64,000 bases of DNA, taken from positions 118,990 to 182,989 of the IMG/VR virus record IMGVR_UViG_3300033146_003879. One strand, given 5' to 3'. The DNA is from a virus (taxonomy: Duplodnaviria; Heunggongvirae; Uroviricota; Caudoviricetes). This document shows, one piece after another, positions 3,001 to 60,462 of this stretch. A program made the position numbers and the translations under genes. The stretch's first letter is position 1; the number at the start of each line of letters is the position of its first letter. A model generated the notes under the pieces. The model worked only from the letters and a program-made list of their open reading frames with translations, did no database searches and was not told the DNA's origin.

Positions 3001-4761
3001 ATGCAGGGAATATTCAAACAGAAGTTACCGGATGCAGCAATCAAGAAGCTAAAGAGAATATCTGATGCAGATATTACGGATTATACTATATATAACTCAG
3101 CGGTTAAAGGACACGCTAAAGAGAACTTTGTCAGAATAAAAGATGCATACAAGAAAGATACGTACGCCTATTTCTTCTATGTATACATAAATTATTTCCA
3201 CGACCTTTACACCGAATCGGCAAGGCTTACTATAAAGGCTGCAACTAACATCGTGAAAGGGGTGATCAACGATGACCTTGCGAAGATACAGATGCGGGTT
3301 GCGGAAGGTGATGTACTATGCGTGTATGGTCATTCAGGAAGCAGTAGGACAAACTACCACTATGATGATGGTCACGCCGCACACATCCACTTTCTCCCGT
3401 ACCGTATACATAAGGATGGGCCTGTATGCAGGAAAAGTGGGAGGTTAAGGAAAATAGTTGAGAGGAGTTCCTCCTCCTTGAGTTCAGCAGAAGCATCTAC
3501 ATTGCTCATAAGTGGTGTGAATGGAATGCTTAAGTCAGTACACCCCTACCTAAAGAAAGAGAAAGACCTAAGAAGACTAACGTACAATCCAGACCTATTC
3601 TTGTATAATATCGATGAGATATCGACGGTATACCAATTCAGTAGGTCATCAGATGTCGGTGCAGCTTCTGACGAGGACGTTCGGGGTGAACTCAATGCTA
3701 CCGCGGACCCAGGAACGATACAGCTGAAGCACTTATATGAGAAAAGTGACTGGCGTAGATATATAGATTTTGAAGCGATGAATATAATGTTGGAGGAACA
3801 GTACTCGATAGATCTACCTTCTGTTTCTATGAGGTATTGTGATGTAGATGTTGCGGCTAACCTTCCTGCTGCGTACATCACATACGATGACATATATCTT
3901 GCGGGGATAAGGTCAACCGCCGTATCCGTTCGAGGAAACGGGTCTCATGTGGGAACTACAGTAAGCTTTACTAGAGGTATGTCGGTTAGGGCTCTTTGGC
4001 TTGTTATTCGTGCTCGAATAGAGCAAGGGGTGAGGGCGGAGCTTAAGATATCAAAACAAAGTGGGATATTTTCACTAGCGTACCTGCATGCTATGGGGAA
4101 GAGCTCGTCTGATATAGCTAACGCTGTGTCAAAGGCGGTTACTGCGACTCTGGCTTCTCCTTATATCCAACCAGCACTATCGGGGATATCACTCACCGTT
4201 GCAAACCATAGTGTAATTAAGAAGGAGTATGAAGATACGTTTGGTAAATCGGAGTTTGTGTTTGACTGGACTGAATATGTAACATTCTTGGATTTGTCAG
4301 GCCCGCACTATCTAAAAGATATACCTGAGTTGCTTGTTAGCAGTGATAATGTAGAAGATGCTCTGACCTTAGCGGTTGACATCATATTGAATCCCGGAAA
4401 TAATGGGAGGGTTCTTGATAAACAGGACCCTTACTTCAGGATAGAGGCCAGAAGCATTATGGCAGGGGAGGAGGGTCTACTGCAGGGAGAATTGGATCAG
4501 CTCTTAACAACAAGAGCCTGGGCTAATGATAGATACCTAACGTTCGATAAGTTCATAAATGAGCTAAAGATGTATTCTGATAAGACGGTTGTGTTTTCTA
4601 AAGACCCTGGAAAAGTTCTTGATATAACTACACGAGGACACGCACGCACGACTCTAGTTCAGAGCGCATTTGAGCGAGTATCGCTGATAACAGATAGATC
4701 TATGACGTATTATGATTGGTCAACTTCGTTCGGTGATGAGGATAAAAGTAAAGAAGAGTAG
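4..4761 (+). CDS. giant virion/structural-like protein, 5' end cut by window edge (>=1585 aa)
   Basis: Single uninterrupted ORF of 1585 aa on +. Converges with the minus-strand block at a shared hairpin terminator. No catalytic motif recognised. Confidence 0.5.
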   Translation: MFAHLRIYDYHNARSLDIVNAPKRISTLSAFKTYLPVGKENGGPIFPTMTEMQSKVIEGLVMASSAKKASSSETKTLLSTLTDIYSSINYTLVPLLNKPVHADKRLERNSSGGYKHKVVSKGYIAPEVMAQPIYNHYAPPLSNIFFGPDIVSATTKVSGGINSKYLFVVRPILPAINSQDLPPKVYTMDIASGQATLIEETDSNLSGAGDAAASIDVESPEDVAFELNNIIQRDMSHVVSRKLKSLINEPEVKQSVVDPDEEGVNKMLSSTKDLELYLNTDLVGNSEEPVSQAIITLTLNTNEKPKTEYKDVTTTTETFDNHDIYRKFKQSFRKANLDVNWVTRSFAPASEAPLIKDALLSTQDYDPDADKDAPSSSLVVETVLALKEVTTRTITTDEEGKSVHAVSGGAIHTKIAINVTAPSKDVLTSILHPADGLFDTVVKPHIAASISYGSLVTVSTNTVMRIISNIVTGYLRILILSAVNKVFDTYRQQLRKGKSDAELIKNMTEFTMLFKNMLASNSTKFHVKMIAKKGFPVSAKIVSVSMEAKGSMQRRIRTSFTGYVLGQSGAPSVIINNAWNIIEYYTTTMSAAAINHVKDNSKDMYGEMNTYGMLSITKFTRKVGGTATPGNLYEYVPVSPELAKMLKKKDIVAPATVNTFDITSVNKKTIMGTLANLIFDPKLLFPVKKAPWSKLGSFTLNATSAYPVWGESLSGDNAVSSPTASFTSNGNITSLMDSLAGCLLGCARISASEKLHHGIGLNRRATLMSKPDNNKAIVQTVLQAALVKGVSVFNDVIGSSVGKYIQFLQGTIIAATHVEVYRPDIKSPPPVTQTTATNSGKSTAYKLTKLYPWFLQGTSSLGDAITLRNPATDTFKPRHYLGPRKDDTLHVGLDLILTQGIKGKPLGKLYDSKEALEIQQKVWADPTVKSKGSDIPVAVAPYEGYVCYSLNNGYGITCRYVPKDRRVESNSIPVFLLGHNDPTSFLYAGPANDTRLQVYMQGIFKQKLPDAAIKKLKRISDADITDYTIYNSAVKGHAKENFVRIKDAYKKDTYAYFFYVYINYFHDLYTESARLTIKAATNIVKGVINDDLAKIQMRVAEGDVLCVYGHSGSSRTNYHYDDGHAAHIHFLPYRIHKDGPVCRKSGRLRKIVERSSSSLSSAEASTLLISGVNGMLKSVHPYLKKEKDLRRLTYNPDLFLYNIDEISTVYQFSRSSDVGAASDEDVRGELNATADPGTIQLKHLYEKSDWRRYIDFEAMNIMLEEQYSIDLPSVSMRYCDVDVAANLPAAYITYDDIYLAGIRSTAVSVRGNGSHVGTTVSFTRGMSVRALWLVIRARIEQGVRAELKISKQSGIFSLAYLHAMGKSSSDIANAVSKAVTATLASPYIQPALSGISLTVANHSVIKKEYEDTFGKSEFVFDWTEYVTFLDLSGPHYLKDIPELLVSSDNVEDALTLAVDIILNPGNNGRVLDKQDPYFRIEARSIMAGEEGLLQGELDQLLTTRAWANDRYLTFDKFINELKMYSDKTVVFSKDPGKVLDITTRGHARTTLVQSAFERVSLITDRSMTYYDWSTSFGDEDKSKEE

Positions 4762-5230: not shown

Positions 5231-5938
5231 CTATTGAGAGACGTATGTTACCATGGCATTTATGTCTCCGTTAACAACGACATAGGAGATATCGAAGTAC
5301 ACCATTCCTGCATTTATCATATGTACAGGAACACCTTCGACGAAGTCAAGAAGCTGATACTTTACGTGGTCGCAGTGTTCACTTGTAGTACGTGCTCTGT
5401 TCCCACAGATAGAGCAGACATCATATTCAACACCGCATCCCATAGATACGAGGATGCCTTTTTTCTGTTTGAGCTTCCGGTATATTGTCGGTGCCGCTTT
5501 CTTCTTTACGGAAAGAACCAACTCAACTCGATGTTGTTCTTCGTTGTAATTCGCATAATAGATGTCCCCAATACTCTTGCTCGGGTCGTCACTTTTGTGA
5601 AACATATAAACACTTCCCTTTTCCATGTAAGTAGGGGTAGCTGCTGGTAGTGTCTGTGTCTCTGACACAAATGGCTTAAACGGCTTCTCGAATACGGAAT
5701 CTCCATTATCGTTCTCACCAAACACTTCAAATGGAAATACCGCGAAGCAGAGCGCTGTGATGGCCCCTTCTCCTGCTGCCTTCTGTGCTTTCTCTACTTC
5801 TTTTATAAGGTATTCTGCGGTGGTCTTTGCTGCCTTTTTTATAAGGCCACATCCAATCTTGCCGTTACAAGTTACTGAGTCTATCACTGTTAGGTTGCTT
5901 GTTAGTGTCTTCTCTAGCATCAGTGCCTCCGTGAGCAT
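5231..5938 (-). CDS. hypothetical protein with cysteine cluster (CGVEYDVCSICG ... EHCDH); possible Zn-binding or prohead-protease-like, unproven
   Basis: 235-aa ORF. Cys/His cluster visible in the translation. Position is adjacent to the scaffolding-like gene. Confidence 0.4.
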   Translation of the reverse strand: MLTEALMLEKTLTSNLTVIDSVTCNGKIGCGLIKKAAKTTAEYLIKEVEKAQKAAGEGAITALCFAVFPFEVFGENDNGDSVFEKPFKPFVSETQTLPAATPTYMEKGSVYMFHKSDDPSKSIGDIYYANYNEEQHRVELVLSVKKKAAPTIYRKLKQKKGILVSMGCGVEYDVCSICGNRARTTSEHCDHVKYQLLDFVEGVPVHMINAGMVYFDISYVVVNGDINAMVTYVSQ

Positions 5939-6137
5939 GTTCCATCAAACATATGAATTATAGAGGAAAAAAAAGAACGCCTAATAGATAGGCGCTCTTG
6001 ATACTTGTTCTTACGTTAATCTGCGTTTCTGCCTTCGCAAAGAGCTGCGTGTAAGGCTTCCTTGCACACCGCATCAGATTCAGGGACTCACTTGGGCAAG
6101 GTGTACTCGCCGCAGTCCTGGAGTGTCCCTCTCTGTG

Positions 6138-7126
6138 TCCGGATATTATCCGGATACAACAAGTGAATTCTCGGTTCTAAAGTGCGCGCGCTGCAGGGAG
6201 CGCCGGCCTGATACGTAACCCGCATGCGCATTACGGGCAGTAATGGCTCTCTCGCAGCCTGGCGGGATCACGGGAGCAACGAAGGAGTGATCCCGCGGCT
6301 GTTCCCTAATGGTAAGTGCTGAAGCTGATATTATCAGCAGACAACCGATAAAAATTACAATCTGAAGTACATCTCCGGTTAAATGGATAGGCCCATACCA
6401 GGATAGTCACAGATCAGGATTCACGCGGTCTCGCGCGAAGCAAGAGTCCGTTTGAATCCTGACAGTGTTGCTGATATTATCAGCGAACATTGTAATCAAT
6501 TCATTAAACTCATCTAAAGAGATCTTACAGATCTCATCCGGTACCTGAAGACCCAGGTTAGTGAATTGTTCGGTTTCACGAAGGTTGAAGGGGGAAGCGG
6601 GATTGCTGCACGTTCAAGCGGATGACAAGCACTCCATCCTGCGGTCCCAACGGGACAAGCAGGCAGTGAGTGGTTGCAGCGTGCTTGAACTAAGCTGGCG
6701 CGACACCTTCCCTTCTGAAACAGCCACAATGAGCTAATTGGGTCTTGTATGAGTGCCGATATTATCAGCAAACATGAGTTCTTTCGTGTGCTTCTTCATC
6801 TAACACTTGGCGCCGCGGGTTACCATCCAGATAACCATCTGCTCCGCCGACTCGAGCTCTCCGAGGGATGCGTAGCAGAGTGAGTCGAGCTCTGGCGGGC
6901 GGCTCATTTTTCCGACATTATCGGAAGACATGAAGAAATAACTTTTGTACATTCGTCTAATGTAGAATCACCGCGCAATTGCAGCCCGGGAACTAGTGTG
7001 ATCGCTGCAAGCATCTCATGAACACCTTCTGTGTGCCGGTCAAGCGCGTAGGCAGGAAATGGATTATTTTCTGTCCCAGCGCGTGAGGCGCACTGCAGGT
7101 GTATGTGATTTCCGATGTTATCGGAA
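6138..7126. repeat. six dispersed 15-17 bp inverted repeats with an ATATTAT centre inside a 1.2-kb GC-rich non-coding island
   Basis: Copies at 6138-6154 tccggatattatccgga, 6324-6338 gctgatattatcagc, 6470-6484 gctgatattatcagc, 6755-6769 ccgatattatcagc, 6910-6926 ttccgacattatcggaa, 7110-7126 ttccgatgttatcggaa. Each copy is followed by an ACA(T)G(A) tract. No ORF longer than 85 aa is present, and those that exist lack an RBS. Confidence 0.7.
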
Positions 7127-7149
7127 TGCATGAATGTATATTTTGTCAA

Positions 7150-7165
7150 CTTCTTATACCATAAT
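7150..7165 (-). promoter_or_regulatory. copy 1 of recurrent promoter-like motif (plus strand cttataccataat; minus strand reads TGGTATAAG, an extended -10)
   Basis: Member of the 14-copy motif family. Oriented so that minus-strand transcription would enter the 5940-7150 non-coding island. Confidence 0.4.
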
Positions 7166-7177
7166 AATAATGGAGTT

Positions 7178-8332
7178 TTACTCGAAAGATAAGCCGTTCT
7201 TTATCGTATGGACAATCTCTTTTGTTGCGTTATTAGCTGTTCGGTAAGGGAGCTTGGTTATACGGGCTATGTCAGTTACTTTTACATTGCCTTCTTCGCC
7301 AGAATCAAGAATCTTGCGCATAGCAGCAAATACCTTTTTCTTAATAGGCTCTTTCTCAAACTCCTTCTCGAGGATATCCATATCAAGACCCATATAGCGT
7401 TCTTTCCAGGGGATATTTGTTGTGTTTATTGAGGAGTCATTAAATACTTTACGACGCTCCGCTATTGCCTTCTCTATGTCAGCTACCGGCAGACCAGTCG
7501 CTGCGGCAAGAAGGTTCTTATCGTATTCGCCTGTCCCGTACTCGTGTTCATATGCCTCAAATGCTTTGTCGAGATCAGACCACTGGCTAATACGGTGCTC
7601 CGGTGTATGGAGCATAGGGCCGTATTTATTAACATATCTGTGTAGTTTCTGCAGTTGGTTTGTTACGTGTGTTGCTAACTTCGCTTTGCTGGGGTCCCAT
7701 GTGTCGATTGCGTGTGATGCAAGACCTACTCCTTTTCCGTATAGAGACCCGTGACTAATTGACTTGCTGACGTTTATCTCACCGACACGTTTCATTATGA
7801 GGGGTTTAAGTGCCTGGAGGGCTTTGTCTTTTGAATCCATATTACCTGTCTCGAGATACTGTTTAGCCCAGTATCCTTCATTGTATTTCTGATCCCGTTC
7901 AGGAACAGGCTCCTTAACTACTTCCTTAACTACATCATCGATCGCATCAGGTATGCCGTCAGCAGCCTTTGCTTCTTTAATAAGCCCGGCTATACAGTAA
8001 GCCAATGAGGATGTTTTCATTATGTCTTGTCTGAGATCCTCGAGGAACTGATCGTCATCTTTATTCTCATCTAACCTTCTGAATCGAGACTTCGTTCGTG
8101 TTGGTATCGGCCCAGCGCTGTCCAGCGGTGATGGATCTATTCCCAACTTAGCTACGACACTCCTTAGAATATCGTTTTCTTGTAATAACCTTACTAGCTC
8201 TCCTTTATTCAGCGCATTAGTTGCTACATTCATACTCTCCGATCGGGCACCAGAGCTTGCTGTGATAGCAGCTCTCCTTCCGGTCTTCGCAACCGATTTC
8301 AGCACTGCTGATGGGTTTATTCCTACTACCAT
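7178..8332 (-). CDS. putative sigma-70-like / helix-turn-helix transcription factor (low confidence)
   Basis: C-terminal segment VTDIARITKLPYRTANNATKEIVHTIKNGL resembles a sigma region-4 HTH. Segment GLASHAIDTWDPSKAKLATHVTNQLQKL resembles region 2. Based on motif resemblance only. Confidence 0.3.
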   Translation of the reverse strand: MVVGINPSAVLKSVAKTGRRAAITASSGARSESMNVATNALNKGELVRLLQENDILRSVVAKLGIDPSPLDSAGPIPTRTKSRFRRLDENKDDDQFLEDLRQDIMKTSSLAYCIAGLIKEAKAADGIPDAIDDVVKEVVKEPVPERDQKYNEGYWAKQYLETGNMDSKDKALQALKPLIMKRVGEINVSKSISHGSLYGKGVGLASHAIDTWDPSKAKLATHVTNQLQKLHRYVNKYGPMLHTPEHRISQWSDLDKAFEAYEHEYGTGEYDKNLLAAATGLPVADIEKAIAERRKVFNDSSINTTNIPWKERYMGLDMDILEKEFEKEPIKKKVFAAMRKILDSGEEGNVKVTDIARITKLPYRTANNATKEIVHTIKNGLSFE

Positions 8333-12286: not shown

Positions 12287-15200
12287 TTATGACCCCTTCT
12301 TGACTGTTGAATATATCTTAACATTACGCATGCGCTGTGTTATTACTACTTTTCCTGGGCGGACGGTGGTGCGTTCTTGGGAGGCGAACTCATCAGAGTT
12401 TTGTGCTGTTAACAGCCCGCTATTTACTGTGCACGCAAACTTATTTTCCGTGTCAGCGGAGTACATTATTGCGTCCTGTATTGTTGAGTAAGGAACTAGG
12501 TCAGCATCTGTATCGTGAAAATAGAGAGGTAGGTATCCTATCGATACCGTGATTGGCACTGATAGCCCTGGAATAGATCCAGCATCTGACCATTGTGTGT
12601 GGTCTGCTGCTGTGTCGCCTACTTTTATTGCAGCTCGTGTTATACCTGAGTAAGGTGCTGTAAAGTCATCTGACAAAACAGTAGGGTCGGTACCCAACAC
12701 TAAGCCGTGATCGTGTAGCACATCTACTAGATCATCGACTAGGTCTATTTCTAAGCTTATTCCTAATGATAGGTCAGCAAATGCATTTATTGGGGAGATC
12801 TCTATCTCGTGATCTAGGTTTAGTGGATCAGTTGCTGTGCTAGGGGTGTTGAGTTTTATGTCTACGGCGATCTGTTCGAACGTGAGTTCCCGCAAAACAC
12901 TATCCGACACAGCCATGGCTATTGTGTGTAGAGTTGCTTTCCCAGGGACAGGCGGTGTATACATGTCAGGGTTACTAACAAGCACATTGTTGTCTTCAAA
13001 CACAATGTCAGTTGCTGTTCTTGTGATTATGAGAGGTGATGACACATCAGGGTAGTAGGAGAGATCACTGAGTGTATCGTTCATGGTCATGGTTTCAAGG
13101 GTTGTTTCTCGGGTACCATCAACACTGGATATGGTAGGGTCAGCAAGCTGTAGTACGTGGAACTCTCCGCTACTATCCTGTACGGAGGCGTCGTACTGTT
13201 GTCTTATGAATGTTGCGCTGTAGTCTTTCGCCGCTTCTGCCAGAGGAGGGTAGGCTACTATATCTTTGTTCCTTCCGAGAGAATCATCTCTATCAGCAAC
13301 GTACTTGGTAAGTCCTAGGTCTAATACAGTCCTCTCGGTACCTTTATATAAGTTGGTTATGTCGACACGGGTCTCCCCTGCTGCGTATACACCCGGGGTG
13401 CTCCTTATTAAGGTTACTTTTTTTATGTAGTTTGCAGCATCTACGTTGAAATACTTACGGGAAACACCGGGGGATACCTCTGATACTGCGTATACAGGAA
13501 GTGTAATCATTGCGAATGGAAATACCTTTGTTTTGTTTGCAGTAGAAGTTGCCCCTGCGAGCTTTATTTTCGATAACAGCCCTAAACTTTGCGCAAAGGA
13601 ACCTGAACCTAGATCTGAATCTGGACTATCTATTTCACGATAATAAGTAGACATTCTATATTTTTCTGAAGTGGGGTTGGTGTCGGTATTAGGCACTGTG
13701 TTTAACTGTATTGGGTTAAATACAAAAGTGTCGGATGCGGAGGTGGGGTCAGTTGTAGCATCAGTCTTTGTGGCAATTATTGATGGGTTAAACAAAGCTA
13801 TGTGAGCTATGTCGTATTGGGGTGCGGATGTATAGGTTGCTGCCCTTGATGATTCTATTGCTGGGTAGAACTTCTCTGTTGTTGTTGTTGCTGTTATGTA
13901 ATCTCCGTAAGTCGTGCTTGTTAAGGACTCATATGAAATCCCGTACACAAGAGCTAGTATGTACTCAGCGGAGAACAGTACAGATCTGTTTTTCGCACAA
14001 TTACCTCTAGCGCTAGAACTGAGCTTCAGGTCAGTATAATAGTCAACATCTACTGTGAAGTTGTCCACCATCGCATCCGGTAATGATCTGTTTAATGTCC
14101 TCTTTAAGTAAGTTTGTACCAGAGATGTGCTGTAGGTTTTTCTTAAAAGTGTTCTGAATCTTGTGAATGTATCGATTGTTAGTGTGTCGTGCGCTGGAGG
14201 TGGGCTGTAGTCAGAAAGGCTCTCCAAGACGTGCTGTACGTTGATGTATGTGTCTATGTTTGTGGCGGCAGATGTGAATACAGTTCTCCGTAACAGTGAT
14301 GCCTCATTATATCTGCCAAATGCTCGCTGATCGTGGCCGTTGGTCCCATCCGATCCCGCTACAGCGGTAGTGTAAATAGAATTAACTGTAGCGTCAACCA
14401 CCAGGTCTCCTGCTTGTCCGCCGAGGCGTGCTCCGGATGATTTGTCGTTTATTGCTATTGTTGTAGCTTGCCCCATTGATAGATTGCTTAGGAGATCCGA
14501 TAAAACGACGTGCATTGACGCCTGAGGCTCGTGGGTTATAGATATTGTGTCTGATATATCTCCGAAATGTATGGAGTATCCTGTTGCGGTGTCTCCTGTG
14601 TGTTCTATTTTTGTTTCATTAACGCCGCCGTATATACGTTTTGTGGATCCCCCGAGAAATAAGTTCAGAGATGAGTATATTGACGAATACCCTGTAAACT
14701 GGTCTCCTACTAATCCATGTTCAGGGGACTCAAGTGCAGGTAGAGGTCTTCTCATAATCGCTTGTTGAGGGAGAGGGGTGAATGGAGGTAACCCTTCACC
14801 ACTATTGGTTGTTGTTATAGCTCCGTTCGTCCCTATTATTGTTCCACCAGATCTAAAGTTCCCTACATTAACGCCGGGATCTCTCACATTACCTATGTAT
14901 GTGCTGCGTTTTGTTGCTCCTAGTATGTCTGTCACAACATACGCTTTTGGTTCTGCCCCGTGGGCATTGGGAGTTATTATGTTTATGAAACCTGTTGGTA
15001 GTATTGCCCCGACATATACAGGTGTTGTTGGGCTAGGCGTCCCTAGTAACAAAGGGATGAGAGGCAGTGTGTATGTTGTTGGTGATATTCTTTTCCATCT
15101 ATCAACGTGTATATTGTTTAAGTCGCTCGCCAAATCCGTTACCTCAATAGAGAACCCAACAGCAGATACTGTCTCAGGGTTTATCAACAACTCGGTACGC

Positions 15201-17101
15201 TTAACTGAATCAGGGTACACAGAAGATCTTCTGTTTATCAGCTCATAAAGAGCGGTAAACATCTGATCAATATACACAAGACTATCTTTTCCTGGTATTG
15301 TTGTGGTAGCCTCGTCTTGTGGTACTACTGGCCCTAACATTGTTGGAAATAGGTCTTTGTATGGCGCCGATGGGGTACCTCCCCACTCCTCTATGGCGTC
15401 GTAGGTTACGTTTGATAAGCGGGTTGCACCACCCGAAAAGAAACTTCCTCCAGACCCCGTCGACATAACGATGCTCGTCTCCCCTGTATGGAGAAAGTAG
15501 TCGAGATAATCATCGAGGTTTATTACTGTTCCATCAAGGAATGTTATCTTTTTCTCAGTAACAGTAAACATAGGTAAGAATGTGTCCTTCATGTATGCTG
15601 TACCGTCGCCAGGGTCAGGTGCACCTGTGTTGTGGTACAGGTAAGGATTGTTCTTATGGGAAGGTTTGTAGATGTCCCAAACTGGTACTTTCAGGCTTGG
15701 GTCAAACGTAGGATCTAGTTCTGTTGTTCCAGGCGCCATATTTGCTATAGCGTGTCCTAGTGATGCTGGTATGAATGCAAATTGAGCACTGGATGATGAT
15801 CCGTTTAAGTATTCGAAGTTTGTGTTTCCGGTTGAGGTTACGGTAGGGGTGTCGAACATTGATTTTTGTACCCCTTCTCTAGCAACAACAAATCCATAAG
15901 TTCCTGTATTTATGAAGTTAGCGTCGTATTTGGGGTGACCGTTTATCTCAGTGCTTGTGAGTTCGCCTGACACATCCCCTCGAGAAAACAAGAAGGGGTG
16001 GTGTCTTCCGTACGTAGGAACATCACCGTCATCAAGAGGTAGTTGATCATCAAATGAAACAGGTCTACCCTCAAACACAGGAGGAAACGCCGATGCTCCA
16101 GGGATCTCTATTCGGACACTACGTGGTTTTATTGTGGCTATGTAAGGTTTTTCTTCTCGGTTCTTCATGAATGTCATGTTGAGAGGGGTGGTCAACAAGG
16201 TGGATGGTGGTACTACCTCAGGGAATATCTTAACGTGAAGCGGGAATAAACCGTCATTAAACGTGCGTGCTGACCCAGCTGTAACAGACCCTAGTGCAGA
16301 TAACAAGTCACCTACAGTCATACTTGCAATGTCACACACAATGCGAATTGTAGTATACCTCTTTTTATTGTCAATAAGAACAGGATCCTCAACAAACGTA
16401 CCGTGCTTGTCTGCCTCAGTATTGTGCTCAACGATAATCGAGATGTTGTGATGTACTGCGGTCGTAAATATATCAGGGTTAGCACCCCCCTCATCAACGT
16501 ACAACATAAGAACTGTTTCTGCGTCGAAAGGAGATGGTTCGTCAGGTGATAGAGGTATCGCATGGTAGTATTCACCGTAACCTCCGAGCCCGTAGTTAAG
16601 AATCAGGGTGTAAGCGTCAGCTGTGTCAATAGATCCTGAAGAGTCCCAGTTACTTGCTGCCGCAAATCGAACCGGAACATATTGTAAGAGACGGCTGCCA
16701 GGAACACTTGTTCCGATAACACCAGAAAGGTCTCCCGGTTTCCATACTCGGATATTCACATCGCGGTCTTTCTTGTAGTAAGGGCTTCCGTAGGTCGCTT
16801 CCGGTGGGGGAGGAACAGCCGCAGGATGTCCCACAGCAGTTGCGCTAGGTTCACTTTGAGCGCTCATATACAGTTGGATCTTATCGAGGAACAACCTATG
16901 CTCAAGGCTTGACACCTCACTTTGGTTAATCCCATGCATTAGGCTAACCATCCGAGAATAAGCAGAACTACCGTAGAGCTCCGATTGACGAACGGGGTCA
17001 CAGTCCTTGTAAAAAATACCGCTGTTCTTAATGTTGTTCTTTTTGTAATCGCGAGCCATGAGTCTCCTCCTTGTTGTCACATCGAAATTATAGTAGAACA
17101 A
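12287..17101 (-). CDS. giant structural protein (1604 aa)
   Basis: Uninterrupted 4.8-kb ORF. First gene of the minus-strand structural operon, downstream of an AT-rich divergent control region. Confidence 0.6.
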   Translation of the reverse strand: MFYYNFDVTTRRRLMARDYKKNNIKNSGIFYKDCDPVRQSELYGSSAYSRMVSLMHGINQSEVSSLEHRLFLDKIQLYMSAQSEPSATAVGHPAAVPPPPEATYGSPYYKKDRDVNIRVWKPGDLSGVIGTSVPGSRLLQYVPVRFAAASNWDSSGSIDTADAYTLILNYGLGGYGEYYHAIPLSPDEPSPFDAETVLMLYVDEGGANPDIFTTAVHHNISIIVEHNTEADKHGTFVEDPVLIDNKKRYTTIRIVCDIASMTVGDLLSALGSVTAGSARTFNDGLFPLHVKIFPEVVPPSTLLTTPLNMTFMKNREEKPYIATIKPRSVRIEIPGASAFPPVFEGRPVSFDDQLPLDDGDVPTYGRHHPFLFSRGDVSGELTSTEINGHPKYDANFINTGTYGFVVAREGVQKSMFDTPTVTSTGNTNFEYLNGSSSSAQFAFIPASLGHAIANMAPGTTELDPTFDPSLKVPVWDIYKPSHKNNPYLYHNTGAPDPGDGTAYMKDTFLPMFTVTEKKITFLDGTVINLDDYLDYFLHTGETSIVMSTGSGGSFFSGGATRLSNVTYDAIEEWGGTPSAPYKDLFPTMLGPVVPQDEATTTIPGKDSLVYIDQMFTALYELINRRSSVYPDSVKRTELLINPETVSAVGFSIEVTDLASDLNNIHVDRWKRISPTTYTLPLIPLLLGTPSPTTPVYVGAILPTGFINIITPNAHGAEPKAYVVTDILGATKRSTYIGNVRDPGVNVGNFRSGGTIIGTNGAITTTNSGEGLPPFTPLPQQAIMRRPLPALESPEHGLVGDQFTGYSSIYSSLNLFLGGSTKRIYGGVNETKIEHTGDTATGYSIHFGDISDTISITHEPQASMHVVLSDLLSNLSMGQATTIAINDKSSGARLGGQAGDLVVDATVNSIYTTAVAGSDGTNGHDQRAFGRYNEASLLRRTVFTSAATNIDTYINVQHVLESLSDYSPPPAHDTLTIDTFTRFRTLLRKTYSTSLVQTYLKRTLNRSLPDAMVDNFTVDVDYYTDLKLSSSARGNCAKNRSVLFSAEYILALVYGISYESLTSTTYGDYITATTTTEKFYPAIESSRAATYTSAPQYDIAHIALFNPSIIATKTDATTDPTSASDTFVFNPIQLNTVPNTDTNPTSEKYRMSTYYREIDSPDSDLGSGSFAQSLGLLSKIKLAGATSTANKTKVFPFAMITLPVYAVSEVSPGVSRKYFNVDAANYIKKVTLIRSTPGVYAAGETRVDITNLYKGTERTVLDLGLTKYVADRDDSLGRNKDIVAYPPLAEAAKDYSATFIRQQYDASVQDSSGEFHVLQLADPTISSVDGTRETTLETMTMNDTLSDLSYYPDVSSPLIITRTATDIVFEDNNVLVSNPDMYTPPVPGKATLHTIAMAVSDSVLRELTFEQIAVDIKLNTPSTATDPLNLDHEIEISPINAFADLSLGISLEIDLVDDLVDVLHDHGLVLGTDPTVLSDDFTAPYSGITRAAIKVGDTAADHTQWSDAGSIPGLSVPITVSIGYLPLYFHDTDADLVPYSTIQDAIMYSADTENKFACTVNSGLLTAQNSDEFASQERTTVRPGKVVITQRMRNVKIYSTVKKGS

Positions 17102-17294: not shown

Positions 17295-17570
17295 AGTCCC
17301 CAAATCAACGTAACTACCTGATAATACTACATGCACTTGGGGACTACTCGGGGACTTACTCTGATATTCGGGGACTTATTCCTCCTTTGCAAAGTAGCAT
17401 TAGTTGTATACTTTATTTAGTATCACAAGTGATACGTTAGGTTTACTGTAGTATACAATCCAAATAATTAAACGTCTTGTGTTCGTGTTTTTGTGTATTT
17501 CTGTGCAATGCTAGTCCCCAGATTTGCCGAGTAACTCCCCGGATCTTGGAATAACTCCCCAAATTTACCC
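17295..17570. promoter_or_regulatory. divergent control region with about 7 GGGGACT / AGTCCCC repeats
   Basis: agtcccca at 17295 and 17513, ggggact x3 at 17337-17385, actcccc at 17544 and 17564. Lies between the starts of 12287..17101 (-) and 17721..20115 (+). Confidence 0.45.
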
Positions 17571-17720
17571 TTCTGTTTTTCGCCACTTTATCCTCTTGTT
17601 TATTTTTGTGTGCGGCATTTTAATTAGACGCATATTTAATCAACAAATTATTTTTAATCAACCAGTACTTCCCCTTGTTATATACCCTATAATTAGAGTG
17701 ACGTTATTTTGGAGGCATAA

Positions 17721-20115
17721 AATGCATAATGTAAAACCGTATCAAGTTAGAAGACAAGCGGATGGTGAGCTCCACCCTGTAGCTATAACGGAGAGGCTAC
17801 TCGCTGTTCGTGACAAACAGTACTCAAGCCCTGTATTATTGCTTCGAGAACAACCCTACCTGCTTGATGGAACACCTACTGTTGCTGTGACACGTGTGTT
17901 AGCAGTGAGTTCACCACTAACAGAGGTTGCTCCTACGGCCGTTGTTCCTATAGAGTCCTTTGTTGTTAGTTACACAGAAGGCATTATATACCTGAACGAG
18001 TCTGAGGTCCCTACCGGAAGTGATGTAAGTGCTGCTTTATATATAGTAGAGTATAGTGGGCTAGGTACACTCGTCAGCACAAGAGATATTCTCAGCCGAG
18101 ACGCTGATGCGTCAAACGCGAGTGACACAAATAGTGCTCTCCAGCGCTTTAACGTAACAGATTCTTACAAACTGGACCCCTCATCATATACGGCGTCTGC
18201 ACAAACAACAGCAGACTCAGTCAATGATGTCTTCTCCTTCGTCCTCTCCGGGGTATATATAACTGTTGCGCGCAATTCTACGGTCTCGTTTATGGAGATG
18301 GATAGATCCACAGCAACACTGAACGCAGTAGCAATAACATCAGACGCGATACCTAATCTAGCAGCCTCAAACCCTGCAGATATATGCATCATATCAGAGT
18401 CTGCTACTGCAATACACGACGGGCTTGGCGGCTTACACTTATTTACCTTGTCAGGAACCTCTTCCGGGACAGCGCGCCGCCTCAAAGTAACATCATTTAA
18501 ACTAGGCTTTACTCCGATAAAACTTGCGGTATTATCACCAGGGAACGACTCTATTATTGTGACATATGTCATGGGTAACGGTACTGGTGCTTATTCCACA
18601 GGGTATTTGCGCTTAACATCCGGACTTATGTTGTTTGATCAAGTAAACATAGACATAAGTAGTCACATAGATACCGGGTTTATTGATATACTCAGTGTGT
18701 CCTCAATACAAGGACCAAACACAACATTTAGTATTTTACAGAGCACCGGAGGAACAACAGTAAGCGTGACGTCGCTGTACTTCAATAGTTATATTTACGA
18801 CGCTCCTGCAGGAGAAGTTATAAGAACAGGAACCCTACCATTTTCAGGGAACATGTACTCCTTCGCCGCCGGCTACGGACCCGACGGCTCTGTTGTAGTA
18901 GCAACGTTTGCCTCATTTACTATGGGACCAAATCTCTATACTACAGCAATACACCCAGATGGAGAGTGCACTACCCTAACCTTCCCGCTGATGCCGAACG
19001 AACAGATTGTGAGCACCACCCGATCACACGGACTCTACATAGGTGTTACTCGCTACCTCGACGGCTCGGATGTGCACTTAAGAACAGCGTTATTCGACTT
19101 TGCAAATTATGAGATAAGCCCCCCTTTAGACATAAATGCATCCGTCACAATCGGTCCGGTTGCACACAGAGAGAACCTTTCTGTATTTACCTATGAATAC
19201 GGAGGCTTTGCCCAAATTATTTACTACGACAACCGCACAGCGAGTAACACGAAGTACGTCCTTGACTATGCGCGGTTCGACACAAAAAGAGACGACTGCG
19301 TACATCCTGACGGACTGCTCCAATGGGAAGGCGACGTCATTAGTGACGAGACTTACATAGACGATACAACACCAGGAGTCCAACTTACTCTGCTAACAAC
19401 ATGTAAAGACACAGAGATTGAGGCAAATTCAGCAGGAACAATCGAGGCTACCGTAACAGGAAAACAAGATGTAACAGGGGACGTCGCGAGCTTCAGAGTT
19501 ACTGCAACTATTCATAATGATGGAATGGCAACAACTATTGTAGGGACCCCAACAACAACAGTACTCGCGAGCACGGCTGGTGCTACAGGCTGGGTAGCGC
19601 GCGCATACAATGCAGGAAACTATCTTATTATCTTTGTACATGCAGACGGCTCTACAAACAACGTACACTGGTCAGCAGAAGGGTTTGTTGTTAAAACAGA
19701 ACTACCTGCAGTTTACACACCAGGAAGCCTTGCTGTATGGGAAGGAGAGACGACAACAGATGAAACTTACGTCAACGATACGACACCAGGAACAAAGTTC
19801 ACATTAGTGCCGGCATCAACAGTAGATACACTAGCGAGTGGTGAGATTGCCAACGTATCAGCTGTAGTTACTGCCGCATCTGTTTCTGGTGAAGCTGCAA
19901 GCTTTAGAATAGAAGGGACTGTGCAGTATGACGGATCCACAACAATTCTTATAGGAACACCTACCGTGTCTGTTCTCGCAGCGTCTGCCGCCGCAGTTAC
20001 ATGGAGAGCACGTGTTTACTTCGATAGCAATCAGATCGTTATTTATGGACACGGGGACGGTAGTGGCGGCGACACTATTACTTGGAACGCCAAAGGTATT
20101 CTTATTAAGTTCTAA
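17721..20115 (+). CDS. tail-fibre / receptor-binding-like protein with internal ~130-aa domain duplication
   Basis: Start at ATG 17721 is preceded by ggagg. Two C-terminal repeats (TYIDDTTPG...WSAEGFVVK and TYVNDTTPG...WNAKGILIKF). Ser/Thr/Gly-rich composition typical of fibres. Confidence 0.5.
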
Positions 20116-24158: not shown

Positions 24159-24499
24159 TGGTGGAGGCGGCGGGAATCGAACCCGCGTCCTAAAAACCTT
24201 CAAGATAGATACTACATGTTTAGTCCGTCTTTACTAAAATCTTCGGCGCCAACGGACAGGCCCCTCGAAGTTTCCTACGCTAAAGTTTTCGTGGCATCTC
24301 CCACATAGAAAGGATCAACCCTTAGTCTCACAGTTGTGCGCCCCAATTGGTGTCGTGAGCACCCCTCCAATAGGACGGCAGCTTATGCTGCTATGAGTTC
24401 AGTTTTTGCGTCTCTGAACGTGCCGCTTTTTACGAGGCCCGCGGCGCCTCGACATGCATCTATTCTCTCCGCGAATCCAGTCGAAACCAGGTCGCCCCC
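24159..24499 (-). ncRNA. ssrA: tmRNA (ssrA-like), about 341 nt, phage-encoded
   Basis: Minus strand reads 5' GGGGGCGACCUGGUUUCGACUGGAUUCG ... GGACGCGGGUUCGAUUCCCGCCGCCUCCACCA 3'. The 7-bp acceptor stem (GGGGGCG / CGCCUCC) carries a G3.U pair. T-arm GCGGG-UUCGAUU-CCCGC with terminal CCA. Internal putative tag frame ends ...ACU GAA CUC AUA GCA GCA UAA (TELIAA*). Confidence 0.8.
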
Positions 24500-26215: not shown

Positions 26216-27079
26216 CTACCTCCATCCATTCGTCAGCGTCCCATCTTCATAGATTACGCCGTACTTGTTATTAACTGCTCCTGCGAGCGCCTTGTATGCC
26301 ACTTTCACTCCATCCATGACAGATGCTTTCAGCGTCTCTTCACACATAAAGCATGATCTCTTTAACAGCAACGGGGTCTTCATCCCAGGAAACAACCGGT
26401 TCGTGTCAATATGTTTCTGACACCCACTAAAGTAAGGGCTCCCGAGCTTAATGTCAAACACGTCCTCAAATGAGACGAAATACTCTTCTCCGTGCTGGAT
26501 CTCACTCAGCTTTATTTCACTGAATCCCATTGCGTCGTAGTGCCGGAGGCACGCTTCAATATCCTCTCTCTTATAGAGAAAAGGCTTCACGATGTTTATA
26601 TTGATCCGGATTTTCTCCTTGTGCGGCAAGCTGTTGTAAAACGCCTGCCTGTCATACTCAGACTTTGTTCTTCGTATCGAGTCTGCGACAGCTTCGTCAT
26701 GATGTTGCACACTCAGGTTGATACCGTCACACATGTCAATGAGTCGCTCAAACATCTCACGCTCATCATGGCATATCTTCGGGACCGCCGTCGTCACAAA
26801 CACTTTGAGTTTCGTGTTCGCTTTAATGAGGATAACACAATCAAGCAACTCTTTCAGATACAGAGCCGGTTCTCCTCCAAGAAACAACACATCATCATAC
26901 CCTTCAGCATTGTTCGCAACCGTATCAGCGATAGCATAGATGTCCGGTTTGTTAATACCGAACCCCGCATAGTGCGTATCGATGCAATGTGCACACTTGT
27001 TGTCACATGCACTTGTGAAGTGTATGTCGAAACTGTTGTATGTGCCGTCGCAGCTGTTTTTTACGAATTGGTTCTTCAT
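26216..27079 (-). CDS. radical SAM enzyme (CxxxCxxC), viperin-like features
   Basis: HFTSACDNKCAHC close to the N-terminus, LFLGGEPAL glycine-rich SAM motif, C-terminal ...TNGWR. Compare viperin HFTRQCNYKCGFC, SGGEPFL and its terminal Trp. Confidence 0.6.
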   Translation of the reverse strand: MKNQFVKNSCDGTYNSFDIHFTSACDNKCAHCIDTHYAGFGINKPDIYAIADTVANNAEGYDDVLFLGGEPALYLKELLDCVILIKANTKLKVFVTTAVPKICHDEREMFERLIDMCDGINLSVQHHDEAVADSIRRTKSEYDRQAFYNSLPHKEKIRININIVKPFLYKREDIEACLRHYDAMGFSEIKLSEIQHGEEYFVSFEDVFDIKLGSPYFSGCQKHIDTNRLFPGMKTPLLLKRSCFMCEETLKASVMDGVKVAYKALAGAVNNKYGVIYEDGTLTNGWR

Positions 27080-29992: not shown

Positions 29993-30367
29993 TTACTGAT
30001 TCTTAATGTATGTCTTGATGACTTCGAGCGGTGCGCCGCCAGAAGACGTAACGTAATAAGACGGGGACCATAATTTCTTGTGCCGTCTTAATTCCGGGTA
30101 TAAAGCTCTGAGCTTTTTGCTTGTTGGCCCCTTAACTGCCTGCACTATAGAGGAGATTGACTCTGTCGAAGGGTATTCAATAAGGAGGTGGACGTGATCT
30201 AAATCGCCGTTACATTCCTCAAGCGTGATCCCCTTCTTCTTGAACGCCTGTCTTGCATAATATGCGAAGTCTCCAAGTATTCTCGGAGAAAGCACCTTTC
30301 TCCTATACTTCGTTACCAATACGAGGTGTGCATGCAAGCTGCTTATGTTTGTTCTTGACTTCCTCAT
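29993..30367 (-). CDS. tnpA: IS200/IS605 Y1 (HUH) transposase TnpA
   Basis: LHAHLVLVTKYRRKVL ... DHVHLLIEYP (HuH) ... LWSPSYYVTS (catalytic Tyr). Confidence 0.85.
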   Translation of the reverse strand: MRKSRTNISSLHAHLVLVTKYRRKVLSPRILGDFAYYARQAFKKKGITLEECNGDLDHVHLLIEYPSTESISSIVQAVKGPTSKKLRALYPELRRHKKLWSPSYYVTSSGGAPLEVIKTYIKNQ

Positions 30368-30389
30368 AACCCTAAGTATACTCTTTTGT

Positions 30390-31508
30390 ATGAAAGTGTC
30401 AAGAGCATATAAATACCGCCTTTACCCTACGCGAGAACAAGAGATTAAGTTGTCTCAGTTCGTTGGAAACAATAGATATCTCTGGAACTTCGTTCTATCC
30501 GCTCTCGAAGGCAAGAAGTGGGACCGATTCGCTGTTTCCAAACAACTTCCTTCACTTAAGTCTGAAATACCATTCCTTAAAGAATCTCCGTCTCAAGCGT
30601 TTCAACAATTGTTAATTGATATGGATGCTGCATTTAAGAGCTTCTTTCGGAAGAAACACGGATATCCGAAGTTTAAGAAACGCGGTATGCACGACTCTTT
30701 TAGAATACCGGTTGTGAAGTCCCCTGAATCTATAAACAAGAATAGCTGCGTCTGGATACCAAAATTGGGTTTTGTGGAACTGCGTTTGTCGCGTGAGGTG
30801 AGAGGAGAAGCGAAGTCTATCACTGTGTCTCGGAGAGCGGGAAAATGGTTTGTCTCAATATTGACGAAAAGCGAGATGCAGGAAACAGGCGGAAAGACAG
30901 GAAATAGTGTAGGAATTGATCTCGGCGTTAAACACTTCGCGACAACGTCGGGCGGAAAGCATATACATGCTCCAGAGGAAAGAGTGCGCTATTTAGAGAA
31001 GAGAATAGAGCGCATGCAGAGGAAAGTCAGTAGAGCGAAGAAAGGATCAAGCAACAGAAGCAAGTTGCGTCTTAAATTAAGTAGACTCCACTTAACTCTC
31101 GCGAATGTGAAAGAAGACTTCTTGCACAAGGTGAGCACACAGTTAATCAAGAACCACGATTTACTTGTGCTCGAAGACCTTGGTGTAAAGGAGATGACAG
31201 AAGCAGGAGCGAGAAAAGCGAAGTTAAATAGAGCAATCTTGCGTCAAGGTTGGTATAAATTTAGGACTTTACTTGAGTATAAGAGTATGTGGTATGGCTG
31301 TGCCGTAGTGTTCGTCCCGCCTCAATTCACGAGTCAGCGCTGTAGCGAATGCGGGAATATAAACGCAGCAAACAGAAAGACACAATCGTCATTTAAATGC
31401 CTTTCGTGTGGCCATACTGAAAACGCTGATATAAACGCAGCTAAGAACATTTTCACCGTCGGGCAGACGGGTAGAGCCTTTGGAGACGCCGCGCTAGCGG
31501 GTCGATGA
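30390..31508 (+). CDS. tnpB: TnpB (OrfB, RuvC-like, RNA-guided nuclease family)
   Basis: N-terminus KVSRAYKYRLYPTREQ, GIDLGVKHFATTSGG (RuvC-I), C-terminal zinc finger CSECG...CLSCGH, DINAAKNI. Confidence 0.85.
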   Translation: MKVSRAYKYRLYPTREQEIKLSQFVGNNRYLWNFVLSALEGKKWDRFAVSKQLPSLKSEIPFLKESPSQAFQQLLIDMDAAFKSFFRKKHGYPKFKKRGMHDSFRIPVVKSPESINKNSCVWIPKLGFVELRLSREVRGEAKSITVSRRAGKWFVSILTKSEMQETGGKTGNSVGIDLGVKHFATTSGGKHIHAPEERVRYLEKRIERMQRKVSRAKKGSSNRSKLRLKLSRLHLTLANVKEDFLHKVSTQLIKNHDLLVLEDLGVKEMTEAGARKAKLNRAILRQGWYKFRTLLEYKSMWYGCAVVFVPPQFTSQRCSECGNINAANRKTQSSFKCLSCGHTENADINAAKNIFTVGQTGRAFGDAALAGR

Positions 31509-32180: not shown

Positions 32181-32598
32181 TCTTCTCCTCCCATTTTCTC
32201 AACTGTTTCATCAAACTTCCATCAACATCAAGGCGTCCGTCACCCATGGGATTTCCAAAACTGAACCACCCACCATCGACGGTACGAGTAAATGTTAGCG
32301 GGGTATTTTCTTCATCATCCAGATGACCATATACTAGCACGTCAGTTTCCTTTGCATACAATCCCGAGCACTGGTCAACCTCTTGTTTCCACAGCTCTCT
32401 CAGATCCTTTCGCGCGGTATTAAAGGAAGCAACGGTTTGTATATAGGCCCGGTTGTGCCGGGTCATTTTGACCTTTCCGTCGTCGAAGAAGTCATACTCC
32501 TCCCCTACCAACGGGACAGGCATTAATTTTCTAACTCCCATAGTGTTCCCCTCCATCTCCGTGGTTAGTAACAGCCGCTCTAATACCCTCTGCGACAC
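32173..32598 (-). CDS. hypothetical protein (141 aa); part of it is duplicated at 34156-34400
   Basis: PLVGEEYDFFDDGKVKMT...SGLYAKETDVLVYGHLDDEE recurs in the downstream ORFs. Confidence 0.4.
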   Translation of the reverse strand: MSQRVLERLLLTTEMEGNTMGVRKLMPVPLVGEEYDFFDDGKVKMTRHNRAYIQTVASFNTARKDLRELWKQEVDQCSGLYAKETDVLVYGHLDDEENTPLTFTRTVDGGWFSFGNPMGDGRLDVDGSLMKQLRKWEEKSG

Positions 32599-33511: not shown

Positions 33512-33524
33512 CCTTCTCCCTCCT

Positions 33525-33806
33525 CTAAACACTATCAATAAACTTGAGAAGCTCCTCTTTCTTTTTCTTGACCTCTGGAGTCAGTTCCACCTCGTGTCTC
33601 CTGATCCTCGGGAACACACCGTACTCATCTTCATAGATACTATACATTATACCCAGACCTACAGCAGGCTCTACGTATCCAAACAGATGAGAAGGCAGGG
33701 ATAACGTCACTTTCCCAAACCTAACGGAAACGAACTCGTCACTGTACGAAACTATTACACCTGACTTCTCTGCTATCAGGTTAATCATCTGCTTTCCCGT
33801 CCACAA
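33525..33806 (-). CDS. hypothetical protein (93 aa)
   Basis: ORF. Confidence 0.35.
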   Translation of the reverse strand: MWTGKQMINLIAEKSGVIVSYSDEFVSVRFGKVTLSLPSHLFGYVEPAVGLGIMYSIYEDEYGVFPRIRRHEVELTPEVKKKKEELLKFIDSV

Positions 33807-43807: not shown

Positions 43808-46442
<2,635 letters not shown>

Positions 46443-57747: not shown

Positions 57748-57833
57748 TAGCGTTTACCTCGTATATGGGTTACCCTTCCTTCAGCCATGTTCGTCTCCAC
57801 ATAAATCATCAGCTGATATAATTATAGGCTAAC

Positions 57834-60415: not shown

Positions 60416-60462
60416 CATAATTAACACATCCTCAATAAAATGTTGTATAAGATACCATCCAC

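Follow-up and report, generated by a model that had tools for sequence, protein, structure and literature searches.

The question raised by the locus described here is what a tailed phage keeps in a long gap between two of its genes. The gap lies in a 64,000-nucleotide (nt) stretch (the window) of the IMG/VR record IMGVR_UViG_3300033146_003879, in which an island at 5965-7150 is flanked by two minus-strand genes, a sigma-like gene upstream (7178-8332) and a protease-like gene downstream (5231-5938 as called). Positions are those of the whole stretch, and the sense strand of the island and of both flanking genes is the minus strand. The island is a tandem array of six units, each of which opens with a variant of the same small hairpin. 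The same array is present in metagenomic relatives, where the stem of the hairpin varies with its pairing retained, and the layout, as far as sequence comparison can tell, matches no described RNA family or repeat system among those tested.

A non-coding island built of hairpin units

A first-pass annotation, made from the letters alone, had described the island as a non-coding stretch with a higher GC content than its flanks and with six irregularly spaced palindromes, and this description holds. The longest open reading frames (ORFs) of the island encode 81-85 amino acids (aa) and have TTG starts, and TAA, TAG and TGA are all present in all frames of both strands. Because each frame contains all three stop codons, stop-codon recoding cannot rescue a gene and was ruled out. 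The GC content is 0.51-0.56 within the island and 0.40-0.46 in the flanks (300-nt windows). A repeat finder recovered all six palindromes, centred at 6146, 6331, 6477, 6762, 6918 and 7118 on the plus strand and thus 185, 146, 285, 156 and 200 nt apart. The two GC stems that had been named exist as well (6414-6432 with 6444-6462, and 6262-6271 with 6287-6296). An ACATGA-like tract had been reported next to the palindromes; the tract is real on the plus strand, but it is the complement of a minus-strand W-T-G triplet (W, A or T) located 6 nt upstream of the hairpin core.

The window has no DNA match among the phages and plasmids of GenBank, so that a recent insertion of host DNA is unsupported; bacterial chromosomes were probed by the exact hairpin-pair pattern alone. 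With regard to antisense targeting, the complementarity of the island to the other 62.7 kb of the window was not above chance.

The units follow one plan: a W-T-G triplet and 3 nt precede the hairpin, which is followed by an A-rich flank; next comes a body of 65-255 nt that is rich in GC, and an A-rich linker closes the unit. The hairpin has a stem of 6-7 bp with an invariant top, in which R-A-U and A-U-Y enclose a W-A-Y triloop. In the window, the units open with ATG or TTG, and six nt further on the core GAT-AAY-RTC lies inside a perfect stem of 6-8 bp. The features of the island are as follows, with the scores of the covariance model described below given in bits.

7181-7153, minus strand: predicted island promoter, with a -35-like element GTAAAACTC at 7181-7173 and an extended -10 element TGGTATAAG at 7161-7153
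6932-7131, minus strand: unit 1, 200 nt; ATG at 7131-7129, hairpin UUCCGAUAACAUCGGAA at 7126-7110, GC-rich body, AU-rich linker; 33.6 bits
6776-6931, minus strand: unit 2, 156 nt; ATG at 6931-6929, hairpin UUCCGAUAAUGUCGGAA at 6926-6910 with a U.G pair on the sense strand; 30.2 bits
6491-6775, minus strand: unit 3, 285 nt; ATG at 6775-6773, hairpin UGCUGAUAAUAUCGGCA at 6770-6754 with a U.G pair, body a long imperfect hairpin of about 200 nt; 31.2 bits
6345-6490, minus strand: unit 4, 146 nt; ATG at 6490-6488, hairpin GCUGAUAAUAUCAGC at 6484-6470, body stem at 6462-6414; 28.5 bits
6160-6344, minus strand: unit 5, 185 nt; TTG at 6344-6342, hairpin GCUGAUAAUAUCAGC at 6338-6324, body stem at 6296-6262, motif ACTTTAGAACCGA in the linker; 29.7 bits
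6000-6159, minus strand: unit 6, about 160 nt; TTG at 6159-6157, hairpin UCCGGAUAAUAUCCGGA at 6154-6138, followed by the body; 32.1 bits
5999-5965, minus strand: predicted intrinsic terminator, with an 11-pair stem at 5999-5973 followed by a T-run
5963-5956, minus strand: second promoter type CTATAATT, just 3' of the terminator and followed by a Shine-Dalgarno sequence GGAGG at 5930-5926 and an ATG at 5920

Covariation and strand of the hairpin

The hairpins of the window and of the related phages were compared as a gap-free alignment of 40 elements for covariation, with 35 elements for the flank counts and 41 hairpins for the wobble pairs. The six inner stem pairs are unpaired in none of the 40 hairpins, and four of these pairs occur with two to five pair types. 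Double changes fill 67 cells of the alignment, compared with 20.1 ± 3.8 after shuffling, and none of 500 shuffles reached 67. The stem cells are paired in 93.6% of cases, compared with 27-48% when the 3' partner column was slid. Non-Watson-Crick pairs in the stems of the 41 hairpins comprise nine G.U on the sense strand and no A.C. A scan in which A.C was allowed as a pair added two degenerate copies and brought the totals to ten G.U, one A.C and one U.U. The three nucleotides at the centre (AAU, AAC or UAU) are asymmetric and have one orientation throughout, with a central A in 35 of 35 elements. The element thus has the signature of a hairpin on a single sense strand, which favours an RNA hairpin over a protein operator or an iteron.

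Operator sites for a dimeric helix-turn-helix (HTH) regulator and a replication origin with iterons had both been proposed for the island. The elements, 15-17 bp long and nearly palindromic around a conserved GAT-N3-ATC core, are present in six copies beside a DNA-binding sigma-like protein, which agrees with such proposals. However, the outer half-site positions change in a compensatory manner, with three to five pair types at three of them and G-C or A-U at the fourth, and the wobble-type mismatches are, with one exception, G.U on one strand (G.U to A.C, 10:1). Compensatory change together with strand-specific wobble is not what a double-stranded operator or iteron would show. In addition, the asymmetric central 3 nt keep a constant orientation, and the spacing (95-285 nt) is irregular, without helical phasing. 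An origin would be expected to coincide with a turn in GC skew, and the check showed the turn at about 16-20 kb and none at the island (6-7 kb); the island is GC-rich, and neither an AT-rich unwinding element nor a rep gene was seen. Operators and iterons are accordingly a highly improbable explanation. As for the skew itself, its cumulative peak at about 16-20 kb falls between a 1604-aa gene (12287-17101, minus strand) and an 863-aa gene (17524-20115, plus strand), and the skew is strongly negative from 20 kb on. The peak could mark a switch of replication or transcription polarity.

When the elements were scored with a covariance model built on them, the sense strand received 24-36 bits and the antisense strand about 13-17 bits. 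The best score in the window outside the arrays was 15 bits, and a copy in the related locus L065 that had not been used for training was recovered. In 713 kb of unrelated bacterial loci that had been pre-selected for the core sequence, the best score was 21.5 bits. With the hairpin scan and the covariance model, the element was found in the window and the related loci nowhere but in such arrays.

The sequence 5' of the stem is also conserved, with G at -7 in 33 of 35 elements, T at -8 in 26 and A or T at -9 in 34. The stem begins 2-3 nt downstream of the G of W-T-G, and an A-rich flank follows the hairpin. A lower stem formed by W-U-G and a downstream C-A was considered and rejected, as this pairing is not conserved.

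The W-T-G triplet could alternatively be a start codon, and the array would then be a series of mini-ORFs or leader peptides beginning with ATG, TTG or GTG and continuing in frame as x-x-Asp-Asn-Ile (GAT AAY ATC). A start codon indeed stands exactly 9 nt before GAT in 26 of the 35 elements, and AAT and AAC are synonymous Asn codons. However, the other nine elements have AGA, TAG, AAG, TGG, TCG or AGT at this position (TAG, AAG, TGG, TCG and AGT occur in the arrays L055 and L057), and one element reads ATG-TAA. No Shine-Dalgarno sequence precedes the triplets, whereas real genes here use GGAGG. The putative peptides would be 1-75 codons long with sequences that cannot be aligned between arrays, and the change of GAT to AAT always goes together with a change of ATC to ATT, which is base-pair covariation and not codon logic. 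This reading is scarcely credible, and we rejected it on account of the non-start triplets in place of W-T-G.

Transcription signals around the array

The first-pass annotation had noted that a promoter motif at 7153-7161 points into the island. This motif is the extended -10 element TGGTATAAG, which occurs in the window as 14 exact copies. Every copy is on the minus strand and shares an upstream GTAAAA..TC; the -35-like element GTAAAACTC overlaps the stop codon of the sigma-like gene. Among the relatives, the motif GGTATAAG is located directly 3' of the sigma-like gene in L001, L004, L055 and L057, and a variant, TGTTATAAG, occurs in L003. At the other end of the array, the predicted terminator has equivalents in L065, L068 and L069, the arrays of which end in terminator hairpins with other stem sequences and T-runs. 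The second promoter type, CTATAATT, lies upstream of the homologous downstream gene in L001, L003, L055, L065, L068 and L069, and in the window it was found ahead of several large genes on both strands. Relatives with a visible 3' end have a terminator hairpin and/or a T-run together with CTATAATT before the downstream gene. The array has a promoter and a terminator of its own, and a second promoter precedes the downstream gene; therefore, the island is not part of the operon message and is, as far as these predicted signals indicate, its own minus-strand non-coding transcription unit.

Several observations on these signals extend beyond the array. The 14 promoter-like sites have the form GTAAAA..TC-N-TGGTATAAGA and are densest at 43-61 kb, before small genes (7161, 25425, 29903, 37831, 43793, 46590, 48028, 48390, 49244, 50472, 52802, 54053, 55660 and 60474). 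Several of them precede structured leaders rather than an immediate ORF. The second motif, CTATAAT(T/A), has no obvious -35 element and occurs at 57827, 17093, 9934, 5963 and 5190 on the minus strand and at 17687, 46602 and 54077 on the plus strand. It stands 20-45 nt before the Shine-Dalgarno sequence and start of several large genes on both strands, and the phage's sigma-like factor may recognise it. In L001, about 340 nt of AT-rich, hairpin-rich sequence (3780-4110) lies between the promoter motif and the first unit that can be recognised; the distance from the -10 element to the first hairpin is within about 20-40 nt in the other arrays. An internal sigma-70-type promoter in each unit was considered and rejected, since the spacings between TTTAGA and the -10 element are inconsistent.

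The strand and the signals also bear on the possibility that the hairpins act in DNA, extruded from one strand, as N4-type promoters, primosome sites or sites of HUH/Y1 nucleases. The geometry resembles that of N4 early promoters, which have a stem of 5-7 bp and a 3-nt loop with a central purine; here the stem has 6-7 pairs and the loop is W-A-Y with a central A (35 of 35). The promoters of the N4 virion RNA polymerase are likewise small hairpins with a conserved top and a stem of free sequence provided that it is paired, so that covariation of this kind is also an N4 pattern. Giant ORFs without an assigned function are present nearby, and a TnpB gene indicates that elements of the IS200/IS605 type have visited the genome. 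However, N4 promoters have a GC-rich heptamer centred at -11, stand on the template strand ahead of early genes and are served by an encoded T7-like virion RNA polymerase, whereas the hairpin tops here consist of A and U only and the hairpins stand six to nine in tandem with no ORFs behind them. The giant ORFs have neither RNA polymerase motifs nor a sequence match in the PDB. G.T pairs are tolerated on the sense strand, which would be the non-template strand for co-directional transcription, and the array has a sigma-type promoter at one end and an intrinsic terminator at the other. Genes for TnpA, Rep or an integrase were not found nearby. Each unit has one hairpin and not the two ends of a transposon, which also departs from IS200/IS605, PATE and REP elements, with their two subterminal imperfect hairpins and a TnpA/RAYT (Y1 HUH) gene. 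The 17-nt hairpin and its conserved core differ from an integron attC site, which measures 55-140 nt, has R''/R' boxes (GTTRRRY) and goes with an adjacent IntI integrase. A role in DNA is thus improbable.

Bodies and linkers

The two halves of the island fold with z = -6.66 and -7.77 relative to dinucleotide shuffles. As controls, adjacent coding sequence gave +0.69 and the antisense strand of one island half gave -5.24. No similarity in sequence was seen among the bodies, either of one array or of different arrays, and they are therefore not duplicated small RNAs (sRNAs).

The closest pair of relatives, L068 and L069, illustrates the contrast between the hairpin and the bodies. Their flanking protein is 90% identical and the 4-fold degenerate sites are 47% identical; the hairpin with its 5' flank is 96% identical over 28 nt, and the terminator, CTATAATT and the Shine-Dalgarno sequence align, but the bodies align no better than random sequence. 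The 4-fold degenerate sites of other pairs are 33-50% identical. Since these sites are near saturation even in the closest pairs, active turnover of cassettes or spacers cannot be claimed, and the bodies show no sequence constraint beyond neutral rather than cassette replacement. They nevertheless remain GC-rich and strongly folded despite their diverged sequences. Selection, as read from these alignments, is acting on the hairpin element and not on the bodies.

In the linkers, (T)TTAGAAC(CG) and AACCGGA are over-represented, and GAACCG occurs in 6 of 35 linkers compared with 0.4 expected. Motifs of the forms (T)TTAGAACCG(A) and AACCGGA stand 20-45 nt before the next hairpin in the window (6182-6170, minus strand), L068, L069, L003 and L055. 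In the last unit of L068 and L069, the related sequence GTTTAGACA lies just 5' of the terminator hairpin. In L055, the linkers of two successive units (1940-1965 and 2083-2110) share a duplicated 21-nt segment, TCACGAGGTAGTAATGAAGTA, which suggests that units of the array arise through local duplication.

Related phages

Metagenomic relatives have the same array. They were recovered by protein searches with both flanking genes, and all of them are metagenomic contigs. Five loci contain complete or near-complete arrays of six to nine units, and four contain partial arrays.

Window: 6 units, complete
L001: 9 units, complete
L003: 7 units, complete
L055 (identical to L056): 6 units, complete
L057 (identical to L058 and L059; L063 differs by one base): 6 units, complete
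L004: at least 1 unit, partial
L065: at least 4 units, partial
L068: at least 3 units, partial
L069: at least 2 units, partial

Wherever both flanks are on the contig, the array lies between homologues of the 384-aa and 229-aa genes in the same orientation. The units are 146-285 nt long in the window and 95-214 nt in the relatives, and the array loci span 1.0-1.7 kb. In distant relatives of the sigma-like gene (L060, L061 and L062) or of the protease-like gene (L190-L195), the array is absent and the genes abut. The array is therefore confined to one sub-clade, and this distribution is consistent with its insertion between two originally adjacent genes.

Wider scans added little. A hairpin-pair pattern scan of IMG/VR gave 50 matches, all of them chance matches, and the sole gain of a scan of the JGI metagenomes with the sigma profile was a copy of L057 with one base change. 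The pattern scan of GTDB returned chance matches and an unrelated hairpin repeat of Oscillospiraceae that scored below the model. This repeat was seen in two metagenome-assembled genomes of Oscillospiraceae (L086 and L144) and one of Ruminococcus (L090) as intergenic hairpin pairs of the form RGGGCG-GATAATATC-CGCCCY (consensus GGGGCGGATAATATCCGCCCC), about 165 nt apart and with more GC hairpins in between; TAATTTC-like microsatellites follow in L086 and L090. These hairpins have no Rfam match, score at most 19.5 bits in the phage hairpin model, and appear to be a separate, undescribed bacterial repeat.

The variation among relatives, together with the folding, bears on the earlier suggestion that the island is one large ornate non-coding RNA. 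Such an RNA would have one global fold, like GOLLD or ROOL. The very strong overall folding (z about -7) and the position of a GC-rich island in an AT-richer genome fit such an RNA. However, the number of units (6-9), their length (95-285 nt) and the sequences of the bodies all vary among relatives, between which the small hairpins alone are conserved, and a conserved global architecture is therefore not possible. No Rfam match was obtained even at E<=10, and the scan that had been recommended, run permissively over 5800-7300, gave only chance-level hits (E 5.7 and 9.3). We consider a single ornate RNA very unlikely. The other suggestion, an array of sRNAs or ncRNA, is the one supported by the sense-strand promoter and terminator, the covariation, the G.U asymmetry, the folding and the conservation in related phages.

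Flanking genes and other features of the window

The two flanking genes are the following.

7178-8332, minus strand: sigma-like gene, 384 aa, the upstream neighbour; divergent sigma-70-family factor by sequence profile and structure model
5231-5920, minus strand: downstream gene, 229 aa (P0155), with ATG at 5920 as the probable true start, an NDNGD motif and a Cys/His cluster; putative prohead protease

The upstream protein had been called sigma-like, and profile and model searches identify it as a divergent sigma-70-family factor. A profile search of the PDB gave 17 matches, of which the 15 best were sigma factors (best E 0.0027). For its AlphaFold model, which is of moderate quality (mean predicted local distance difference test score, pLDDT, 63), all 50 of the 50 Foldseek matches listed were sigma factors with a probability of 1.0 and TM-scores of 0.2-0.3. 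The Pfam family Sigma70_r3 was matched in the distant relative P0007 alone and not in the window protein.

The downstream protein has a weak PHROG match to phrog_18299, 'head maturation protease' (E 6.7e-6), and other weak matches, and the gene is a putative prohead (head-maturation) protease gene. Its homologues in the array-bearing relatives are 59-88% identical and thus far better conserved than the sigma-like protein. The AlphaFold model of the 229-aa protein (mean pLDDT 52) was too poor for use.

Next to the array, no gene for an RNA-binding protein or a nuclease is evident. Other parts of the window encode an RNA ligase, a transfer-messenger RNA (tmRNA), TnpB and two exonuclease-like proteins. 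The tmRNA (24159-24499, minus strand) scores 173.6 bits in Rfam, and ARAGORN predicts the tag peptide AKTELIAA; the same program found no tRNA in the window. The IS605-type TnpB gene (30345-31508, plus strand) matches the Pfam families OrfB_IS605, Cas12f1-like TNB and HTH_OrfB_IS605 and lies on the strand opposite to nearly all of its neighbours; no TnpA was seen with it. Further minus-strand genes with Pfam matches are located at 32531-33538, 43808-45796, 58225-59322, 59312-60427, 26216-27079, 40705-41517, 60858-61526 and 49519-50367. The families among them are RNA ligase, NAD-dependent DNA ligase, GmrSD-N with an HNH endonuclease beside an EcoRI-like adenine methyltransferase, radical SAM, SPFH/Band 7, Rv2179c-like 3'-5' exoribonuclease and MYG1-like exonuclease.

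Possible roles of the array

The reading that we favour, tentatively and with a confidence a little short of even, is that of a punctuated non-coding precursor RNA that is processed at the hairpins into several stable RNAs. The phage promoter at 7181-7153 would drive a single transcript of about 1.17 kb that ends at the terminator at 5999-5965. Each hairpin would be the recognition site of an RNA-binding factor, and the conserved U-G would mark an endonucleolytic cut of the RNase Y type after the G. The precursor would thereby be punctuated into several stable RNAs, each with a 5' hairpin that blocks 5' exonucleases, and the compact bodies would resist nucleases and Rho. The sequence 5' of the hairpin has the features of an RNase Y-type site in G (33/35), T (26/35) and W (34/35), with a hairpin just downstream and an A-rich 3' flank. 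RNase Y prefers to cut after G, with U at -2/-3 and in an AU-rich context, and a hairpin downstream of the cut stabilises the 3' product against RNase J1 (bioRxiv 10.1101/2023.03.12.532304). We infer transcription, cleavage at U-G and the reading of the hairpin by an RNA-binding factor from these sequence features.

Several points weigh against processing of this kind. Transcription, its strand and the processing are all deduced from sequence. A generic 5' stabiliser needs no invariant top or triloop, and a specific binder must therefore be assumed in addition. The host may or may not have RNase Y. Functional sRNA bodies should show some sequence conservation, and none was seen. In the minimum free energy folds of the units, the bodies contain 82 G.U pairs antisense compared with 55 sense, and several long body hairpins are more stable in the antisense strand. 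Owing to this excess, the strand is read from the hairpins, from the promoter and terminator, and from a single z-score comparison. Finally, the evidence base is small, with five full and four partial arrays, all metagenomic.

The conservation of the hairpins alone is accounted for better if the RNA is not cut. In this alternative, which we regard as possible but on the unlikely side, the array would be a multivalent RNA sponge or display scaffold, the six to nine hairpins of which titrate or assemble a host or phage factor. Possible targets include RNA-binding proteins, a nuclease or defence effector and the anticodon loop of a tRNA, and the bodies would be mere self-folding insulators. Sequence selection on the hairpins alone agrees with this, as do bodies that vary in sequence and length yet remain GC-rich and folded, and a near-invariant hairpin top and triloop class (AAU, AAC or UAU) is expected with a specific ligand. 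The copy number is always high (6-9), and the phage has RNA-repair genes (RNA ligase and tmRNA), so that RNA-targeting host functions may matter. On the other hand, no candidate binder was identified, recognition of the loop alone leaves the upstream U-G and the A-rich downstream flank unexplained, and searches of Rfam and the literature gave no precedent for the architecture.

A broader proposal, to which we give a small but real chance, is that the array represents a class of long non-coding RNA that is new for phages, a 'hairpin-display' array, in which the selected parts are the 6-9 hairpins of 17-27 nt and the GC-rich sequences between them are freely evolving, self-folding insulators. 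Such an array would be a multivalent sponge or assembly platform for a host factor, with the machinery of RNA decay, a defence nuclease that targets RNA and the anticodon loop of a tRNA as examples. If this proposal is true, the array would be an RNA-based device for host take-over or against host defence with no described counterpart.

The non-coding RNAs of phages have been explored much less than their proteins. In the present case, a clade of large uncultivated phages keeps 1.0-1.7 kb of protein-free DNA in which purifying selection is visible on a tiny repeated hairpin alone. The hairpin is a candidate for a new RNA-protein or RNA-RNA recognition module, and the locus may be an RNA-level strategy of host take-over or defence evasion. 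The covariance model and the synteny (sigma-like gene, array, protease-like gene) can be used for mining metagenomes and metatranscriptomes.

Comparison with known systems

No account of such an array came up in full-text searches of the literature. With Rfam 15 at gathering thresholds, the tmRNA at 24159-24499 was the only match in the whole window, and GOLLD, ROOL, HEARO, 6S, ribozymes and group I and II introns were not matched.

The array resembles CRISPR arrays, the transcripts of which are processed at their repeat hairpins, in having one promoter, hairpin repeats in one orientation, unrelated variable intervals and a repeat number that varies among relatives. However, CRISPR repeats are near-identical and 23-50 nt long, whereas only a 9-nt core, RATWAYRTY, is conserved here and the stems vary between copies; the repeat families in the island have 65-91% identity over 22-26 nt. 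CRISPR spacers are uniform and about 26-72 nt long, but the units measure 146-285 nt here and 95-214 nt in the relatives, and the intervals of 65-255 nt that take the place of spacers are unequal and strongly self-folded, with no sign of acquisition from foreign DNA. Among 50 window ORFs scanned with Pfam there was no Cas family, and the only related match was the IS605-type TnpB 23 kb away.

ToxI arrays and phage tRNA clusters are likewise tandem non-coding RNA units behind one promoter in a GC-rich structured island of a phage genome, and their transcripts are cut into monomers. ToxI arrays consist of head-to-tail, near-identical repeats of 34-36 nt beside a toxin gene of the ToxN/AbiE type. 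A direct-repeat search found no tandem array of this type (~34-36 nt) here, the neighbours are sigma-like and protease-like and not a toxin, and the short 5' hairpin alone is common to the units. The tRNAs of a cluster have a common fold, and ARAGORN finds none here.

The maturation sites of RNase Y, such as those in cggR-gapA of Bacillus subtilis and saePQRS of Staphylococcus aureus, have an AU-rich single-stranded context, U-rich positions -2/-3, a G before the presumed cut, a stable hairpin a few nt downstream and an A/U-rich stretch after the hairpin, all of which recur in the array. The array differs from them in that six to nine repeats stand in a non-coding transcript and the hairpin has an invariant top and triloop. 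By analogy, the closest functional likeness is probably an RNase Y-type maturation site repeated in a non-coding RNA, and the architecture resembles a repeat-spacer array without Cas.

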